A stretch of 64,000 nt of DNA, from positions 183,148,001 through 183,212,000 of the forward strand of contig NC_042997.1 in NCBI RefSeq assembly GCF_006345805.1, written 5' to 3'. This document shows positions 13,886 through 53,706 of this stretch, piece by piece. Below the pieces are notes generated by a model. That model saw only the letters and a program-made list of their open reading frames with translations. It did not search any database and was not told where the DNA came from. The DNA comes from Octopus sinensis. Lineage: Eukaryota. Made by a program: the position numbers and the translations under genes. How positions within the stretch are numbered: position 1 is the first letter of the stretch; each line of letters opens with the position of its first letter.

Positions 13886-15023
13886 CAAGACATGAAAACA
13901 AGAAAGCATCATACTCAGTAACAAAACAGGCAAAGGAATATGTAAGTGAATTCCAAATACTACAAATTCCAGAATTAGACATACTAGAAACAAGCGCAGA
14001 AAAAGCTAAGCACATGAAAACCTGTACTAAAACTGCTGCTTTTGATATTCTGACTGATAAATGGCAAGAAAAACTTCTCAGTGGTAAATACCCAAAGAGA
14101 TCAAATAATGCTGATGTTGACAAAGCCCTTACCCATCAATGGCTAATGGCTTCTCTGGCTTAAAATCTGAAACAGAAGGCTTTATCATAGCAGCCCAAGA
14201 TCAGTGCCTACTTACAAGGCCAACATATTAAAGAATGGCAGCTTCCCAACATGTCATATATGTCAACAATAAAATGAAACCATTGATCATGTCGTCTCTA
14301 TGTGTAGTCTTCTTGTACCTACAGAGTATCTCAACAGGCATGATAGAGCTGCACAATATATTCACTGGGTAATTTGCGAAAACCTGGACTTGCCCCATGA
14401 TAAAAACTGGTGGGAACACAAACCACCTCCAGTGCTTGAAAATGATCACATCTCGCTCCTCTGGAACTTCACCATTCAAACTGACAGAAATATAGATACA
14501 AATATGCCAGACATCATATTGAAAGACTTCAGACAAAAAACATGCCTCCTCATTGATATGACTGTCCCAATCAATATAAACGTATCTGTCAAAACCTACC
14601 AAAAACTGAGCAAGTATAAATATCTTGAAATAGAAATTAACAAAGTGTGGAACCTGAAGACTAAAACAATAGCTGTTATAGGTGCCCTGGGAATGATAGC
14701 AAAAGGGGCTGATTGCTACCTAGCTCAGATACCAGAAAACCCCCAAATGGCAGAAATTCAAAAGATAGTGCTTATGGGAACTGCCCATATCCTAAGCAAG
14801 ATACTTTCTATGTAATCTCAAATTTTAAAACAAACACATAATTTTTTTATGGTTTCTTAAGCATTCTCTAGAACAACACTATGTACAAAAACCAAATATA
14901 ATGGCACCCTAGGCATAACACCAACATGAACTTCTAACTTGTCTTTTGAGGTCTCTGGGTGAGACTTGGAGCCAACTTGTACAAATGTAAAGCAAAAGTC
15001 AAACATAAAATAATAATAATGAT
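13886..15023 (+). mobile_element. 5'-truncated R4/Dong-like non-LTR retrotransposon (zinc knuckle + restriction-like endonuclease), frameshifted, (TAA)n tail
   Basis: C..C...ETIDHVVSMC...YLNRHD...WWEHKP...LWNFTIQTD...PDIIL...LIDMTVP...K..KY motifs. Ends in aataataataat. Confidence 0.88.
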
Positions 15024-41205: not shown

Positions 41206-41487
41206 ACTTCCCAAACTCCCAGTTCAACTAAAACAGTCAAAATAACCACACAAAAGAAATCCATTCAATCACCTTCCTCTTTATCATTTTCATCATCATC
41301 ATCTTCATCACCCTCAGCCCCTGTGGCAGTTTCAGCAAATCTTGGCATATCTGAAAATTCATCCTCTCATTGGTCTCGTGCAATCACCACTCAAGCTACT
41401 ATACAGTCTAATTTGGTAGCTCAGCCTACAGTGACTTCAGGCTTACTGTCCAATAATTCTACTCCCTTAGCAGTCTATAAGAAAAAG
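41206..41487 (+). CDS. ATF7IP: ATF7IP coding exon 6, S/T-rich, symmetric (possible cassette exon)
   Basis: Poly-T tract + gcag| acceptor, 282 nt open, donor AAG|gtgaga. Phase 0-0. Confidence 0.75.
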
Positions 41488-42724: not shown

Positions 42725-43522
42725 ATTCTGCCACCTAATAATAGTAACAATAACAATAATCAGTCAAAGAATGGACAAGTGAGCAGTCAGTTAACTCCAC
42801 CAGTCACCAAATACCAGTCCACAACAGTTAAAAGCTTACTTGATGCGTCACGTAATCCAAACCAAGTGTCTACGCCACAAACTTTGCTTTACCAATCTTC
42901 TGGTCTAATTGTTGTATCTCCTCCAACTGCAACTACAACAGCAGCAAATACTACTACTACAACCCGGAGTATTCTTACTAAACCAGTTACAAGTCAGGCA
43001 CCAACTGGAGGTGTAAAATTAATAGATTTAACAGGGGATGATGAAGCACCATTTAAAAATCAAGCAAATGGAAAGAATGTTGTCCACACAGCTGCCATTG
43101 CACCCATGGGATCTGTGCGGTCAAACATTGTCTCCCAACAAGTTGTTCGTCAGGTAACACCAGTACAACAACCAAAAGTACCTTTTGGTACATCATTTCT
43201 TTTAAGTACACCTGCTGGGACTCAAATCATCAGCCCAACAGTAACACAAGGTGTAGGACCAGCAAAACCTGGTGTATGCCAGTATGTTCTTACATCAACA
43301 CCCAATATCCGGCCGGGTGCATTAGTTACAGTAGTACCTACTACAGGAACACAGAACTCTTCAGTGAGACCACCAATTGTATCAAGTACAGTTGCAAATG
43401 CAGGTTCTTTACCACAGTTACGGCCAGCTCAACAATCCACTACAGCATCCTCAGTTGATCTAACAAAGGCGATACGGCCACCTCCACCACTTCAAAGTGC
43501 CCCAGTGCAACAAAACACACAG
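42725..43522 (+). CDS. ATF7IP: ATF7IP coding exon 7, T/P/Q/V-rich with SUMO-interacting motif VKLIDLTGDDE (43013-43045)
   Basis: Acceptor ttatttccag|, 798 nt open, donor CAG|gtaagc. The motif matches the VIDLTxDDE SIM of MCAF1. Confidence 0.92.
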
Positions 43523-45089
43523 GTAAGCTGAAAAAAAAATCATATTTCTTTCTTGGATTTGATATTTTAAGTGTTCCAGTTGAGCTTAGATAATGTATTT
43601 AGCTTGGTTAATAGCCAGAACCGAATTAGATTTTGTATTTGCATTTAATTTGGGGGAGTATTGAAAATTTTATGTTAAATATTTTCTGGTATGAGTAGGT
43701 TATATGTTGTGAAGTAATTTTTACCTCTACTGGAATACAGTACAGTGTTGTTAATGTCCTGAGTTTATATGTGTATAATACATGCTTCTTGTTTTTCCAG
43801 AAATTTAAACTTAAACATTTTAGTGTGTGCATGATGTGTGAGACCTATTATGTTCTGGACCCTATGTATATTATTATATTTGGGATGACATGACTAAACT
43901 AAGTTAATCTATTATCCAAGCGATTTGATGTGTAACATAGCATTTAAATCATAATAATGTTACATTTTTCTATGATAATGATATTAAATTTTTGTTGTAT
44001 GTCATAAGTATGTCCACATTGGAGATTGTGCCCCTGTCAGTGTCTGAATGAATATAGCAAATGTTTGCTGGTGTTTAGTGATATGAAGTAATCAGAAAGT
44101 AAAATTGACATTTGTAACAATAATTTTTTTTCTTTACTGTGACAAATCTGTGCTGTAAATAGATGCTATCTTGTGTGGTGTTATATCCCACAAAATTAAC
44201 ACTAAAAAATGTTCTGCACTATGGTTAGAAACCTTTTTCATTTTTACCTCATGTAAAACACTATATTTTAGTTTTAAGATTTTGATTTGAAAAAAAAAAC
44301 TTTCACGTGATCCTGAATGTCTGTTGTGCAAAACATTAAAAAAGTTACATAATGAAAATGTCAGAGGAGTTTTAAATTGTGCACATTTTATAGAATACAT
44401 GCTTTATTCTCTTTGTGACAATGTGACTGTGTGCATCACAACACAAACTGAATAGGAAGATTGAGATTGCACTTACTACACCATCATTATGAAAATCAAA
44501 TTCATTTTCTAGAGCAAAAAACAAAACAATCGTGTAGATTGTGCGATTCTATAATATTGATTTTACAGCAAGTGAACTTTTATACAGTGAGAATGCAGAA
44601 ATTATAATAAATCTAAACACTTCTTTTCCTAAACATCATAGTACTAAAGAGAGATTTTTTTTTTTCCTAGGATTTCATTGCCTGTAATTAGTGGTGTGCC
44701 TTGTGATAATATATATATCTTGTAACAAATTTAATGAAAAAACATACTTCTCATTTGACGTAGTGGTTTTTCTTTATGATAATTTTAAAGCCTACAGCAC
44801 AGTGGCTGTGGTTCATGCAGGGCTACTGCTCATGTGCTGGTATAGATCTGAGAATTAAGGCTTCATTCTTTGAAAATAGCACTTAATATCACTACTATAC
44901 TGGCAGTGGTAGTCAATGTTGAATGCCATATAAATCACAATAAGTACATCTTGCCCCTATTGATATGTACTTTGGAAATCCCAGAAAAAGATAGCAATTC
45001 CCATTGTTGAATAATCACTCTTATAATAAATGCTGTTGTCTATATATTTCATATCATGAAGAAAGATAACTCCACTAATATTATAGTTA

Positions 45090-46400
45090 CCAGTTATTTT
45101 CCTTTCTTTTCTGTGTGTGTGGCATTCACTCTTTGGTACCCAGCATCGTCTCTTTCTCTCATTGCTCCTTCATCGTGCGCCTCATTTTCTTTCATTGCCC
45201 TAGACCTCAACACCCATTCTCATCTAGATTTTATGCCTACTTATTTTCTGTATATTGAGCAAGGCTACTTCCATGTTGATACTGGAGACCTGTCTTCTAG
45301 GTTTAGCTTCAGTACCTGGAATTTTCCCTCCAATTCCACTATAGATTCAGCTATGAGAACCAGAATATCAATGTATAGAGATTCACATGGACAGCTGATG
45401 TTAAATCTCTGGTAGCTTCTTTATCTATAATGATTAAAAGATAGCACTGAGGACTGAACTTTGCTGGAGCACTAATTCCATGCTAAATTCATCTCTGAAA
45501 TATTTGTTGACCTTCACTTTCCTTATGACAGCTTTATACATAACTTATACTGCCCTCACAAGCCATTTGTCTACTTCTAGTTTTCTTATTAATCTCCAAA
45601 TTACTGAATGTGGTACTTTCTTCCAGTCAACAAATGCCAGGAATAGTGGTTCCCTCCTAAACAGGTATTTCTCCTTGGGAATGTTGCATAAGCGATGCCT
45701 TTGCTGGGCATGAAGTCTATATCTCATCTAGGTCTTCTCTGCTATGGATTAATTGTGCTATGATTCTTTGTGACCTTTATAACCTGACCCAACGGTTTAT
45801 TTCCTCAATAATTTCCTCTCTGTAAGGCATCTCTTTGGGTATTAACTATCCTGGTGGTTATCATGTATCCTACCTCACCAGGAATTTTGAGCATTTCCAC
45901 AATTATCCCTGATGGTCCAATAGTTTTCCTCCCCTTCATGTCTCTAATCACCTTATCTACCACACTGCTGTCAACTTGAATTGTTGGCCTCTCTGTAGTG
46001 GTCAGCATGAGGTAGCACCTTCTTCCTATGCATTCCTTCCCAATAATGTTTTGGTTCTCTAACACATTATCTTGCAATCCAGAAGACCCCGCATTACTGA
46101 TTCCCATATTGCAGGACAGGTGCAAATCTCTTTCTTCTTCACTCTTAGCCAAGCATACCTGTTGCCTAATTTAATAATGCTTTCTACTTACCATGTTTTT
46201 TCTGGGTTTTCCAAGTTTGTCTTATAGCCATTACAGCCTTATCAACTGTCATTCCATCACCACATCATCTTTGATTTGGCTGGGACTTTGCACCAACCAC
46301 ACATCTGATCTGTAGCCCAAAGCATGTCATTTCATAGATTTCTCTGTTGTTATCTATGCTATAGGTATCTTATTCCTCCCTACAGTCATGTATATATATA
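45090..46400 (-). mobile_element. Degraded RTE ORF2 fragment
   Basis: EKYL..R.PLFLAFVD.KK..VPHSVIW.L.RKL.V.KWLVRAV and V.K.I..MK..K..GPSGI..EMLK...NY motifs. Confidence 0.75.
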
Positions 46401-47899
46401 TCAATCAGAAATTTCCTGTTTACTACGCTCTCATTCTGAAGCCACAAGTCAGTGTTGAGTTGTGCATATTTGTTTAAATAAACCATATATGCCACATGTA
46501 TATCTTCCTTATCCATCAGTGTGGGGCGAGTCCTTTTGTTTATGATTCCTATTTTTAGTGATTGGCCTCTGGTGCTCATTTTCTATTAGAACTTTTTGGC
46601 TGTGCACTTCATTAATTGGTTTCTAATTTTCTTTTGTTATTTTGTTTCTTTGTTTTGTTAGACAGCATTTAAAAAATTTCCACCATTTGATTTGTCACAT
46701 GTTCGATTTCATTTTTATGGTTTTTTTTTATATATATATAAACAAGCTTCTTATGAATACTTATATGTTTTTTACCTTTGGTTTGATGAGCATATTTCCT
46801 GCTTTTCAAAATCACTGTTCTTGTTTATTGTTTTTAAAATATAGTTTCTTAAGATGTTTTATTGAATGGCTCATTTTGTTGTTGTTTGTATCCTATTTTT
46901 GACAAAGGGCTGTTTGATTTTTTTTTACTCTATGGTGACATTTTGTTTTTGTTAGTGGTGTGTGTTTATATGAATGTTAGCTGTTAGGGGTTCAATTCCT
47001 AAATATTTCTATATGGAGCCTGGTGCATCCAGAGGTAGTGGTGGTTTTACGATCTTATTGACATCATTTTGTTTCTACTGCCTGTGCATTGTTGGTTGTC
47101 TACCCAGTTTGCAGTTGAGACCATTTATTGAAGCTGAATTTATTTCAGTATCTACAATGTGATGATCTCATTTCATTTCTTTTGCATAGAAAGTGTATGC
47201 AGTGTGATTATTGTATTTTTCTGTGATGCATCAATGGGGCATGTTATGAAATTTTTATGTAAGGAGTTGTGGAATCTCTTATTTTCTGTTTTGTATTTAT
47301 CTTAAATATCAAAGGTACTTTGACGAGGACATTGCATTTTTTCTGCTATAATTCTAGAATATATTTGAATACATGTGTGTATACACATGTTGTGTTTATA
47401 CTTTTAATTCATCCATTATGGGAACTTCCTTTCAAAGGAAAGAAGATCAGTGAGCAAGTAACAAAAGAAAAGGAAAGAACAGTTGGAAACAAGAAGAGAA
47501 ATTTTGACATTCATTTCTGGCATCCATCTGTCATAGGAAACAATATAGTTTTATACTTCCATGTATAAGCTGCAACACTTGTTGTGACTATGGTCCAATC
47601 CGCTGACCTCTGAAGGTACAAGCCTAATGTATTGAGATTCTGAGTTTCTCAGTTGCCAGGTTTTCTCTCTTAGCTTTGCTGATGTGATCCAATGAAGTCC
47701 AAAGCAGTATATTTGACACCACTTTGACTGTAGGAGTTGCTGGAAGATCATCTAAGAAGCTCCACTCCTGAATTTTTCATAAGGTTTATTTCTTAGTTTT
47801 GTCTTGTGAGACAGTGAAGCTGTTTACCTAATCTGTAATCCTGGACAGAGCCTGTACCAGGTGTTGTTGGCATGAGAGTGCAAGAATCAATCAGGCAAG

Positions 47900-48560
47900 G
47901 TTATCAGATAACAAAGTATCGCTGTCTATTACTCCGAAGAAGAAGAAGAAAAAAAAAAGAAGCAATAATATTCCTGTGCCCCAGGAAGGAAGAACAGATG
48001 CATTATTAAGAAAACAGTTGAGAATGTGTGAAGCTCTGAAATGCCAAAATGAAATAAATTTAACGATAGCAGAGCTTAGGGAATAAACCTCATTAAGATA
48101 TCAAAAATGAAATAGCATATGAAAGAAATTAAAGGAGGGCAGATATGAGAAAAAGACAGCCACAAAGATGTTAACATGAAATTGAAGAAGAATGGAATAT
48201 GAGATCTCTTAATGCACAAGCTACAGAAATATAGGAAGCAAATTCATAATGTAGGAGCAAACATAAATATCTATTTAAAAATAAATATAGTTTTCTATAT
48301 TTTAGATTCATTTTATTATCATTTTCAACACATTTAACTAAGATAAACATTTCATAAATATTTCCCATCATTACAGATGGCATGGGTACACTAGTATAAC
48401 ATAATTGTTTAGTGAACTGTACCTTGAAAATTAAAATGAAAATAATTTTCTTTACTTCATATTTTGCTTCTGGTATTTAATTATATTTAGAGTAATAGTC
48501 TTAGTTTCAAATATTGTTTTGATAAAATCAAATAATTATTTCTGTATATATTTTATATAC
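47900..48560 (+). pseudogene. Decayed tandem copy of the STPR unit (period ~715 bp) with Helitron-like 3' end
   Basis: Aligns by eye to 48620-49275 but contains stops and frameshifts. Hairpin CCATC-attaca-GATGG (48365-48380) then CTAG|T at 48391-48395. Confidence 0.65.
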
Positions 48561-48579
48561 TTCTAATTCAACTGTTGAG

Positions 48580-49005
48580 GAGACGCCTCTTCAAAGGAAA
48601 AGAAGATTAGCAAGGGAACGACAAAGAAGGTGGCGCTCAACCTTATCTCAAGAACAATTAGAAGCAAGAAGAGAAAAAGGTAGAAAAAGATATTCCAGTG
48701 CTTCACAAGAAAGAATTAATGCAATAAGACAGCAAGCAAGAAAGCGTGAAGCTATGAAACGCCAAAATGAAACTGAAGAAGAGGGAAATTTAAGGCGGGC
48801 AAAGCTGAGGAAATGGGCATCACAGAGAATTCGAAAAGAAACTGTGGAAGAAAGAAATTTAAGGAGATCAAAAATGAAAGAAAGACAATCACAAAGAATT
48901 CAACAAGAAACTGAAGAAGAGCGGAATAGAAGAAGATCTCTTAAAGCACAAGCTATGAGAAATAGAAGAAACAGTCAAAGTTGTAATGTAAGAGTAAACC
49001 TGTAA
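48580..49005 (+). CDS. Intronic ORF of 23-aa STPR-type repeats (Helitron-derived?), possible alternative terminal exon
   Basis: Frame open 48526-49005. Repeats ETEEEGNLRRAKLRKWASQRIRK / ETVEERNLRRSKMKERQSQRIQQ / ETEEERNRRRSLKAQAMRNRRNS are each 23 aa. AATAAA at 49025 and 49058. Confidence 0.5.
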   Translation, partial: ETPLQRKRRLARERQRRWRSTLSQEQLEARREKGRKRYSSASQERINAIRQQARKREAMKRQNETEEEGNLRRAKLRKWASQRIRKETVEERNLRRSKMKERQSQRIQQETEEERNRRRSLKAQAMRNRRNSQSCNVRVNL

Positions 49006-50365
49006 ATAATATCTGTATTTAAAAAATAAAAGTAGTGTCCTTTATTTTATCATTTCCAATAAATTTAAAGCAAACATTTGCTGTCAGTTTAGATGGCATA
49101 GGGACACCAGTATAACATTGCTTAGTAAATTGTGTACCTTGGAAGTAAAGATGTAAATGATTATATTCTTCACTTGATATTTTTCTTTTAGCCAATTATT
49201 TATATTTATGGCAATAGTTTTAGTATAAAATATGTTTTGATAAATGAAATAATTATTTCTGTTTAATTTTATATAATGACATTGGGAAATTTCCCCAAAG
49301 TAAGAAGAAAAGTCAGGGAAAAAATTTTTTTTCTTTTCAAAATATACATTTTGAAATGTGATGTTGAGAGATAGCTGAGAGAGTAGAACTTGCAATTGAA
49401 TCCTTTATTGTGATTAGGTTGGCTACTTTACCTTTTGAAGATAACATAATTTTCTCTTTGTTCTTATTGTCTGAATTGGGTGGGCATCAATATATTTAGG
49501 ATATCATAGATTTGGTGAGCAAGAATATAAAACAGATAACTGTTTTTTCCCACCTTTCCCATTTTCATTTGTAATAGAATTTCATTTTATTTATGTTTGG
49601 GGAAAGTGTTTCGATTTTAAAAGAATATATATATATATATATATAAAAGAATGAGCATGCAATTTTGGTTTTGGCCTGTTGACATACTCCTCTTAACTCT
49701 TCACCTAGTTGAAAAAAGCTCTCACTTCGTAATTGATTGATTGTTCAGAAGAATTTAAAATATTTGTTCCAACAATGCATATTTAAATAAGACCTCTCTC
49801 TCCTCCCACCAAAATAAAAACAACCCTGGGTTCTGTATGTAAAGTTTGACATCCCAGAAGCTTTTAATACACTAAACACTTTTTTCTTGAATATGCACTG
49901 CTGAAATTGAAGTATGTTTAATATGTGTGTGTGCATCTTTTATGCCATCAAATATGATATTCATATTTGCAGTACCTTCTAATTCAGTATAGGAAATAAA
50001 TGCAACTGATCAAAACCATATAACTTTCACTTATATTGACAACTGTCTTCCATTTCATATTGTGGTAGATTTGTCAGTGTTGCAAAATTGTTATTTATTT
50101 TTAATGTTTCTCTATTCATTTAAATCTACTAACTCTTAATTGTTGAAGTAAAATGTCTCCCAAAGGGCTGGCACTCTGGACAGGAAGAATTGGGAAAATG
50201 CTTAGTGTTGGACCTGGGAGGGAGGAATGATATGAATGATGAAAATAGGAAACATGAGTGTGATGGATGGGCTTTGGTAGAGGGGGAGCATAATTAGCTT
50301 GATCTGAGAAGCAGAGGTCAAGTTGTGATAGAAAAGTCAGAGGGAAGAGACATAAAAAATTTGGG

Positions 50366-50594
50366 TTAACCCTTTCGTTACCAACCCGGCTGAAACCGGC
50401 TCTGGCTCTGTAGTACAGATGTCTTGTTTTCATAAGTTTTGAATTAAAATCTTCCACCAAACCTTAGTCACAATTTATGTTCCTAACACTAGCTTAACGG
50501 TAACTAAGTTATTTTACTAAATTCTTTGTTATATTTAAAGTAATTGAAAAAAACACAGAGCATCTCAAAATAAATACAGTAACGAAAGGGTTAA
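50366..50594. mobile_element. Intact piggyBac-type MITE (221 bp)
   Basis: TTAA-CCCTTTCGTTAC ... GTAACGAAAGGG-TTAA, perfect 12-bp TIRs with TTAA TSD. Older relatives at 36262-36391 and 50920-51143. Confidence 0.9.
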
Positions 50595-51251: not shown

Positions 51252-51408
51252 AGAGTAGTCTCCACTCTACTCAGTACCTCATCTTCAACAACTCCAGTAG
51301 CAAAACATCCAGCTCCATTACCATCACAGCCCACTCCCACCGTAACATCAACAGGTCTTAAAAATCCACCACCCAAAGCAGGTCTTCGGATATCAAGGGT
51401 AGCACAAG
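51252..51408 (+). CDS. ATF7IP: ATF7IP coding exon 8 (KHPAPLP...PPPKAGLRISRVAQ), lead-in to FN3
   Basis: Acceptor actttcag|, donor G|gtaagt at 51409. HPAPLP motif typical of the family. Phase 0-1. Confidence 0.92.
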
Positions 51409-52663: not shown

Positions 52664-52779
52664 GCATTGTATTATCTTGGAATATGGCTTTAAATGAAAA
52701 TCATGCTGAAATTTCAAATTATCAACTCTATGCTTATCAAGAAGGAAGTGCCCCACCTAGCACTTCCTTATGGAAAAAG
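52664..52779 (+). CDS. ATF7IP: ATF7IP coding exon 9, FN3 domain N-half (GIVLSWNM...YQLYAYQEGSAPPSTSLWKK)
   Basis: Acceptor tttatttag|, donor AAG|gtttgt, recognisable FN3 strands. Phase 1-0. Confidence 0.95.
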
Positions 52780-53182: not shown

Positions 53183-53344
53183 GTTGGAGACATTAAGGCT
53201 CTACCTCTTCCGATGGCTTGTACATTAACTCAATTCCATGAAGGAAACAAATATCATTTTGCTGTTCGAGCTGTAGATTCACATGGCCGTGTAGGGCCCT
53301 TCAGTGATCCTAGTACCATAAACCTTGGAGTTGGAAACAAATGA
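53183..53344 (+). CDS. ATF7IP: ATF7IP last coding exon, FN3 C-half ([18 protein letters not shown]...GNK*)
   Basis: Acceptor ttatttcag|, family signature [14 protein letters not shown], stop TGA 53342-53344. Confidence 0.96.
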
Positions 53345-53706
53345 ATTCTATAGAATTCTTGGAAAGACACACCAGTAACTACACCTTCAATTAAGGACAT
53401 GTTAATATTCTTTGTAATCCAGCATTTATTTGATGACATCTTAGTTACCATGAGTCAAATTCTTGAGTCCTAATAGTCTCTATTATTAACTCCAAGTTTT
53501 TGACACCTAAAAAAAGTTGTGTGTGTTTGTTTCATTAAGGTCTTTTACAGACAAGGAGAAGTATCTATAAACAATTTGCTCTTCATTAGCTGTTCGCATC
53601 ATTGTTAAGGATTTGACACTGTTTGCTTTATTATAGTTATCTATAAGTACGGGAAGGTGTCTTTAATTTAAAGAGATTTACAAAAATATTTTGTAGCTCA
53701 CTTTAC

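Follow-up and report, generated by a model that had tools for sequence, protein, structure and literature searches.

An open reading frame in intron 7 of the Octopus gene ATF7IP is the middle copy (copy B) of an old tandem array; it carries three 23-residue repeats that are STPR-like, is covered by RNA contigs and occurs there in an unspliced form. We give an even chance to the reading that this copy is used weakly as an internal first exon, with a putative promoter of its own, whose inferred junction to exon 8 would yield an STPR-FN3 product and whose unspliced form would yield an STPR-only product, with translation, DNA binding and function predicted. The frame lies in a window of 64,000 nucleotides from Octopus sinensis (NCBI RefSeq assembly GCF_006345805.1, contig NC_042997.1, positions 183,148,001 to 183,212,000, forward strand), to which all positions below refer (Table 1). 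The initial annotation, made from the sequence alone, had described the frame as an alternative last exon, entered from exon 7, that exchanges FN3 for a DNA-binding module. It did not include the relic copies that flank the frame in tandem, the donor at 48987/48988 that keeps the reading frame, or the ATG that was probably the ancestral start.

Sequence data

Among the 24 sequencing runs listed, 14 that were guessed to be RNA, none of them recorded as such, contained 0.47-0.74 of the words. Four RNA runs, from four organisms and studies and chosen for containing the stretch, were analysed, and canonical splice joints in all four identify them as RNA. The records inspected comprise 15 of 76 joints, 24 of 981 loose ends and 32 of 12,530 pieces; runs X8 and X10 represent two Octopus species other than that of the window. 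Intron bins that were not covered were not counted as silence, and only a weak hint of shared 5' ends was drawn. Nine splice models were simulated as graphs with k=31, which we take to be the Logan value, and the simulation also reproduces the 337-nt contig of exon 6.

Table 1. Positions of the main features within the window
Feature	Positions	Strand	Evidence or remarks
ATF7IP exon 7 (numbering of the initial annotation)	42725..43522	+	RNA contigs and protein match; joined directly to 51252
Copy A, broken paralogue	47418..48394	+	stops, frameshifts, ~440-bp insertion (about 47503-47945)
Spacer	48395..48576	+	second copy at 49111-49290, 81% identical; RNA 5' ends near 48483-48561
Stop-to-stop open frame (copy B), 159 aa + stop	48526..49005	+	homologous coding part from 48577; ungapped against P0001 over residues 2-116
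GAG-GAG, acceptors of the initial annotation	48577..48582	+	crossed unspliced by 3 of 4 RNA contigs
Degenerate upstream helical units	48580..48768	+	52% identity to P0002 over 73 aa
First in-frame ATG, G at -3	48754..48756	+	sequence
Three 23-aa STPR-like repeats	48769..48975	+	Glu1, Thr2, Arg9 and Arg20 in 3 of 3
Splice donor GTAAGA, phase 0, in frame with exon 8	48988..48993	+	X10 contig and graph simulation
Two AATAAA hexamers (49025, 49058), for the unspliced form	49025..49063	+	unspliced contigs end at 49086, 49105, 49191
Decayed Helitron-like 3' end of copy B	49080..49110	+	weak hairpin, CCAG
Copy C, stub of the first codons of the frame	49275..49320 (about)	+	sequence similarity
ATF7IP exon 8 (linker, FN3 start)	51252..51408	+	RNA joints; inferred acceptor for the STPR exon
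ATF7IP exon 9 (FN3)	52664..52779	+	RNA joints, open frame
ATF7IP exon 10, coding part (FN3 end, stop)	53183..53345	+	RNA joints, open frame

Results

The host gene is Octopus ATF7IP, as first annotated: exon 7 matches O. vulgaris proteins at ~100% and those of O. bimaculoides at 96%, and Pfam fn3_4 matches the orthologue. The donors of exons 5-7 are all of phase 0. Exon 6 (41206-41487) is a 94-codon cassette, which is present in the isoforms of 1100-1103 aa and missing from those of 1007-1009 aa, and the geometry of its contig is compatible with both inclusion and skipping. In the Thr run of exon 7 (at 42934), all four RNA runs have three extra letters (one Thr) relative to the window.

The frame has the extent first given for it. 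Its core repeats begin at 48769, 48838 and 48907, a spacing of exactly 69 nt; the description of three exact 23-aa repeats is correct for this spacing but not for the sequence (73% nucleotide identity over 105 nt). A degenerate repeat upstream had also been described, and both a degenerate ET unit at 48580 and a weaker 23-residue unit at 48700, in register with the core repeats, were found there, the latter without the set of Glu1, Thr/Ser2 and Arg9 that is found in all three core repeats. A two-codon upstream ORF begins at 48719, and 59 codons ahead of the ATG at 48754 remain open and conserved, for which translation from a non-AUG codon, rare use as a cassette or recent loss of the ATG could each account. 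At 48731, 48873 and 48878, the letter in the window alone differs from X2, X8 and X10 alike, with two residue changes, and these therefore look like derived alleles segregating in the species of the window.

The only PDB match of the repeats was silkworm FMBP-1 (E 1.6e-4), aligned in register. The available text of PMC4856987 names Glu1, Thr2 and Arg9 as the three conserved residues of STPRs, together with further contact positions, of which octopus repeat 1 also has Leu13, Trp16, Ala17 and Ile21. The likeness to the FMBP-1/STPR domain (PF21107) consists of the 23-residue period, of Glu1, Thr2, Arg9 and Arg20 in all three core repeats, and of Arg6 in two of them. The domain usually has four repeats, whereas the octopus frame has three core repeats, in which Leu10 is replaced by Arg and of which the third is degenerate. 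Scores against Pfam STPRs were 10.1 and 15.6 bits, below the cut-off of 27, and the full ORF matched no Pfam family. The identification as STPR repeats is thus upheld by period, hallmark residues and the FMBP-1 match but not by the Pfam check (15.6 of 27 bits), and we therefore term the repeats STPR-like, a class that the sequence supports and for which the STPR mode of binding, to AT-rich DNA through its major groove, is predicted.

A scan of 1.84 billion protein representatives gave three matches to the frame. P0002, the closest relative of similar size, has its Met start at the position of 48577. P0001, translated from a Logan contig, is an 831-aa protein with the module at 37% identity behind many decayed ET-type repeats, and is perhaps an independent domestication in another organism. 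Protein searches by word index with the ORF found none among 1181 longer and none among 146 similar-length candidates, which we count as weak evidence, and in the Atlas the ORF lies at 0.85-0.87 to clusters that bear STPRs, a value under 0.9 that is a lead. AlphaFold from the single sequence returned one long helix with no Foldseek match, a result that is uninformative.

Positions 47941-48559 and 48660-49275 are 70% identical over 656 columns. The front of copy A (47418-47503) is separated from the remainder by an insertion of ~440 bp (47503-47945), which has an A-rich 3' end and is possibly a retroposed fragment. The ATG of copy A (47418-47420) is in register with the first GAG of copy B, and P0002 has its Met at the same position; the supposed acceptor GAG is therefore suggested to be a mutated start codon, and 48577 is probably the site of the lost ancestral start.

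Several features point to a Helitron-type source, as first proposed. P0002 starts at the same residue as the octopus module and then runs into a Cys motif, which we take to be of the Helitron type, and among its neighbours in the Atlas are clusters in which a minority of members bear STPRs (11%) or Helitron_like_N (18%), which are leads. STPRs are almost confined to HLE1 Helitrons according to the available text on HELIANO (PMC11417382). Copy A ends (48364-48395) in a weak hairpin with CTAG and then T, which may correspond to the hairpin with CTRR and then T at the end of HLE1 elements, whereas copy B has CCAG. Folding of 46 nt gave -4.2 kcal/mol for copy A and -2.7 for copy B, values that stand without a shuffle control. 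Unlike HLE1 elements, the octopus element is without Rep/helicase or Cys motif, and the 5' TC end was not located in the octopus copies. Similarity among the copies fades ~30 nt ahead of the start, and the upstream alignment is no better than shuffles (48/300). As the 5' terminus is not fixed, the homology of P0002, its Atlas neighbours and the end of copy A make it likely rather than proven that the element is the front end of a non-autonomous Helitron-type element.

The two spacers differ by 19%, from which the spacer duplication would be very roughly 30 million years old on the scale quoted in the available text of PMC13282606. The same text places the split of Octopus species at 13-34 million years, and the array would very roughly be about as old or older. 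A young multicopy transposable element was rejected: true repeats in the window draw 15-39 contigs per listed position at depths in the thousands, whereas the depth at the variant positions listed in the frame corresponds to one contig per RNA run at at least 92%, and contig X8 follows both local flanks of the frame. The many near-identical young copies named in advance as contrary evidence were thus not seen in the RNA runs, and the frame is old and transcribed. A short element with inverted ends at 50366-50594 is covered by dozens of RNA contigs at depths in the thousands and looks like a high-copy MITE. Two other frames, at 14273-14815 (+) and 45805-46170 (-), resemble by eye what we take to be LINE reverse-transcriptase/endonuclease relics.

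A contig on the frame was present in all four runs, with depths of 4.3, 7.5, 8.7 and 16.2; depth was 59-181 on the main mRNA and 3.5-7 on contigs elsewhere in the intron. X1, X2 and X8 run unspliced past 48987, to 49086, 49105 and 49191, and thus show differing 3' ends rather than the defined end anticipated for a last exon. The STPR contig of X10 (535 nt) matches as far as 48987, directly before GTAAGA, and continues with 30 further letters, with 15 unplaced letters ahead of 48498; the exon-7 contig of X10 (835 nt, 3 of which are an insertion) stops after the first 30 nt of exon 8. Only the model in which 48498-48987 is joined to exon 8 and is unlinked to exon 7 yields 832+3 and 520+15. The predicted length of the exon-7 contig was 805-806 under cassette and last-exon models and 832 with retention of the intron end, and no break arose from the main isoform by itself. 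Three other explanations of the break were rejected: a donor at 48982, which leaves the wrong end; a retained intron end, by the graph simulation; and splicing of exons 5-7 to 48499, which would have lengthened the X10 match by the shared AG and runs into an immediate stop in that frame. From this contig geometry we strongly infer a junction from 48987 to exon 8, itself not among the joints listed, in X10, one of the four runs; partly spliced pre-mRNA could mimic the 5' end of the X10 contig. In the spliced form, the frame is open from the ATG at 48754 through exons 8-10 (222 residues). A GT resembling the copy B donor is present in copy A at the corresponding place.

The route into the frame from exon 7 fared differently. 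The splice signals named for it are present, namely the AG-free stretch (48504-48578), the GAG-GAG, CTAAT at 48563, AATAAA at 49025 and the phase-0 donor at 43522. As acceptor signals they are not beyond chance; of the 431 AG-to-AG gaps in the intron, 11 measure at least 73 nt, and the caution that GAG acceptors are weak was well founded, since all nine real acceptors inspected are CAG or TAG and none is GAG. A search for split reads had been proposed, and no joint from 43522 to 48580 or 48583 occurs among the 15 of 76 joints listed from the four RNA runs, an absence to be read together with the loss of rare variants in contig building. The main contig is continuous through 43522 in all four runs, and X2, X8 and X10, whose matches begin at 48561, 48501 and 48498, pass 48579 without a splice.

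An alternative last exon spliced from exon 7 is therefore not borne out by the listed joints, the unspliced passage of the acceptor in three of four contigs or the contig sizes of X10, and the sole splice evidence joins the STPR exon to the FN3 exons rather than putting it in their place. We consider quite improbable a minor exon that is fed at 48580/48583 by an upstream phase-0 donor, either as a last exon or as a 136-aa cassette (48580-48987), the latter of which would put the STPR repeats into full-length ATF7IP with FN3 kept. It would explain the 59 open codons before the first ATG, for which an internal first exon does not account, and the change from ATG to GAG; the phase of the upstream donors fits, the cassette is open end to end, and contig assemblers can delete junctions of low cover. 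Against it stand the unbroken main contig at 43522, the unspliced passage of 48579 (in two contigs by ~80 nt), predicted contig sizes that mismatch X10, the GAG unlike any real acceptor, and an AG-free gap that is not rare.

Copy B and P0001 align without a gap across residues 2-116, which places length changes in this part on copy A: the coding parts of A and B differ by 13 length changes, and all ten that can be polarised against P0001 fall on A (0.5^10 = 0.001), which also has four stops in 118 codons. In a neutral simulation with half the A-B divergence, B stayed open with a probability of 0.0003, or 0.03 under substitutions alone. Relative to the window, the frame contig of X8 has 14 differences in 691 positions versus 75 in 1631 for other intron contigs (P 0.003), and that of X10 has 8 in 490 versus 18 in 387 (P 0.015), in a comparison for which the runs were picked for similarity to the stretch and the control contigs may contain repeat paralogues; exon 7 (13-14 differences in 755) is similar to the frame contig (P 0.70). 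The sole indel in the frame among the contigs is one of 3 nt (X8), and there is no frameshift in X8 or X10; six of the eight changes in X10, with no stops, and three of the 14 in X8 were listed. In two other Octopus species, copy B thus looks intact, with a level of conservation close to that of exon 7. Signs of the conservation suggested as a check lie in frame and divergence but not in the kind of change: six listed substitutions comprise five replacement changes and one silent, as expected under neutrality (P 1.0). The dN/dS ratio of copy A versus B was 0.62, which is not significant (P 0.09), a repeat-based rate test gave 24 versus 13 (P 0.10), and the frame was itself selected for being intact.

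These values bear on two further readings. It is possible, if somewhat unlikely, that the frame is a fading Helitron relic, once functional or merely lucky, which has lost its start, is transcribed leakily, has a cryptic donor and makes no useful protein. The probable loss of the start codon, the five replacement changes to one silent, a depth near that of other intron contigs and splicing in one of four runs agree with this, as do a chance of ~0.12 per lineage of staying open since the species split and the absence of the exon from all 18 Octopus ATF7IP isoforms in the database. A relic would, however, not be expected to leave all ten polarisable indels and all four stops on copy A, to diverge between species at less than half the intron rate with a single, in-frame indel, or to have a donor in frame with exon 8. 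Nucleotide conservation without an excess at silent sites would also suit conservation of the stretch for regulation in DNA or RNA, as a promoter, an enhancer or a splice regulator, with the open frame as a by-product; this reading does not predict frame-keeping indels or a 23-residue register with hallmark residues, and we hold it to be very improbable indeed. The internal first exon, in turn, must be reconciled with a junction in one of four runs and three runs unspliced at 48987.

Discussion

For the internal first exon, we propose that a non-autonomous Helitron-type element with the STPR front end of a transposase inserted in sense orientation into intron 7 of ATF7IP and multiplied in tandem, after which two copies would have decayed while the middle copy stayed open. 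The latter would be transcribed weakly as a unit of its own, from a putative internal promoter, with its start near 48480-48560. In spliced RNA, the donor of the element at 48987 would lead to exons 8-10 and to a predicted protein of 222 aa from the ATG at 48754, in which a Thr/Pro linker connects three STPR-like repeats to FN3; RNA left unspliced, with its own stop and poly(A) signals, would encode a predicted STPR-only protein of 83 aa. In mouse cells, the FN3 of ATF7IP is a binding hub (ZMYM2, MGA and other partners), and SETDB1 is held by a separate, essential region of ATF7IP, according to the available text of PMC7706265. The fusion would be without the SETDB1-binding region and should therefore serve as a DNA-tethered adaptor or a competitor for FN3-binding partners rather than as an alternative SETDB1 cofactor.

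The available text of PMC4778049 describes how, in bats, donors of the intronic Helitron HelibatN3 splice to the next host acceptor, so that an intronic Helitron provides start and donor of an N-terminally truncated host protein, as in the octopus model. In HelibatN3, the promoter and six codons are captured host DNA, whereas the octopus exon would add the DNA-binding-type repeats of the element. Host-transposase fusions such as KRABINER and SETMAR (bioRxiv 10.1101/2020.05.07.082677, available text) are alike in that a transposon DNA-binding module is spliced alternatively, through a splice site of the element, to part of a repressive host protein. Those fusions involve cut-and-paste transposases in tetrapods, whereas the octopus case is of Helitron type and in a mollusc; the transposase forms the 3' part of KRABINER, whereas here the element is 5' and its partner is the FN3 of ATF7IP, with repression predicted. 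CSB-PGBD3 is reportedly a further fusion of host and transposase. With the splice model corrected, the octopus exon is a real feature that would be of the host-transposon fusion kind, with a putative function.

The word Helitron is absent from the available text of bioRxiv 10.1101/2020.05.07.082677. In a literature search to which most subscription journals were external, no paper paired ATF7IP with octopus, Helitron and STPR occurred together only in two versions of HELIANO, and an STPR exon of octopus ATF7IP was not found in print.

Four of the 18 Octopus ATF7IP isoforms, which are automatic RefSeq models, have STPR-type N-terminal extensions on the full-length protein. The first type is shared by O. 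sinensis XP_036363343.1, which passes the cut-off of Pfam STPRs (31.1 bits), and O. bimaculoides XP_052828669.1, with 107 of 113 aligned residues identical. O. bimaculoides XP_052828660.1 and XP_052828662.1 represent the second type, which combines 23-residue units with a Cys motif that is presumably of the Helitron type; Pfam STPRs found no match in these two extensions. The extensions (P0020, P0025, P0009, P0026) splice to an exon at about 15800, with their 5' exons upstream of the first base of the window, and P0010 and P0027 have a shorter form of the second type. The three STPR modules, two 5' and one in intron 7, are not close relatives of one another, and cuttlefish ATF7IP proteins have no such module at the ends inspected. 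These gene models suggest recurrent STPR capture at ATF7IP, and the two 5' exons would make the STPR-ATF7IP fusion that was first imagined, via different exons.

If the present reading is true, a transposon DNA-binding module on parts of ATF7IP would be a directly testable route by which the repeat-rich genome of a mollusc could direct H3K9 methylation to particular sequences, and would extend host-transposase fusion to the STPR modules of Helitrons. It is a tentative and unlikely idea that at least three separate STPR graftings onto ATF7IP give SETDB1 silencing its own transposon-derived DNA targeting, possibly aimed at the source Helitrons; if true, this would be a rolling-circle, invertebrate counterpart of the KRAB-transposase repressors.
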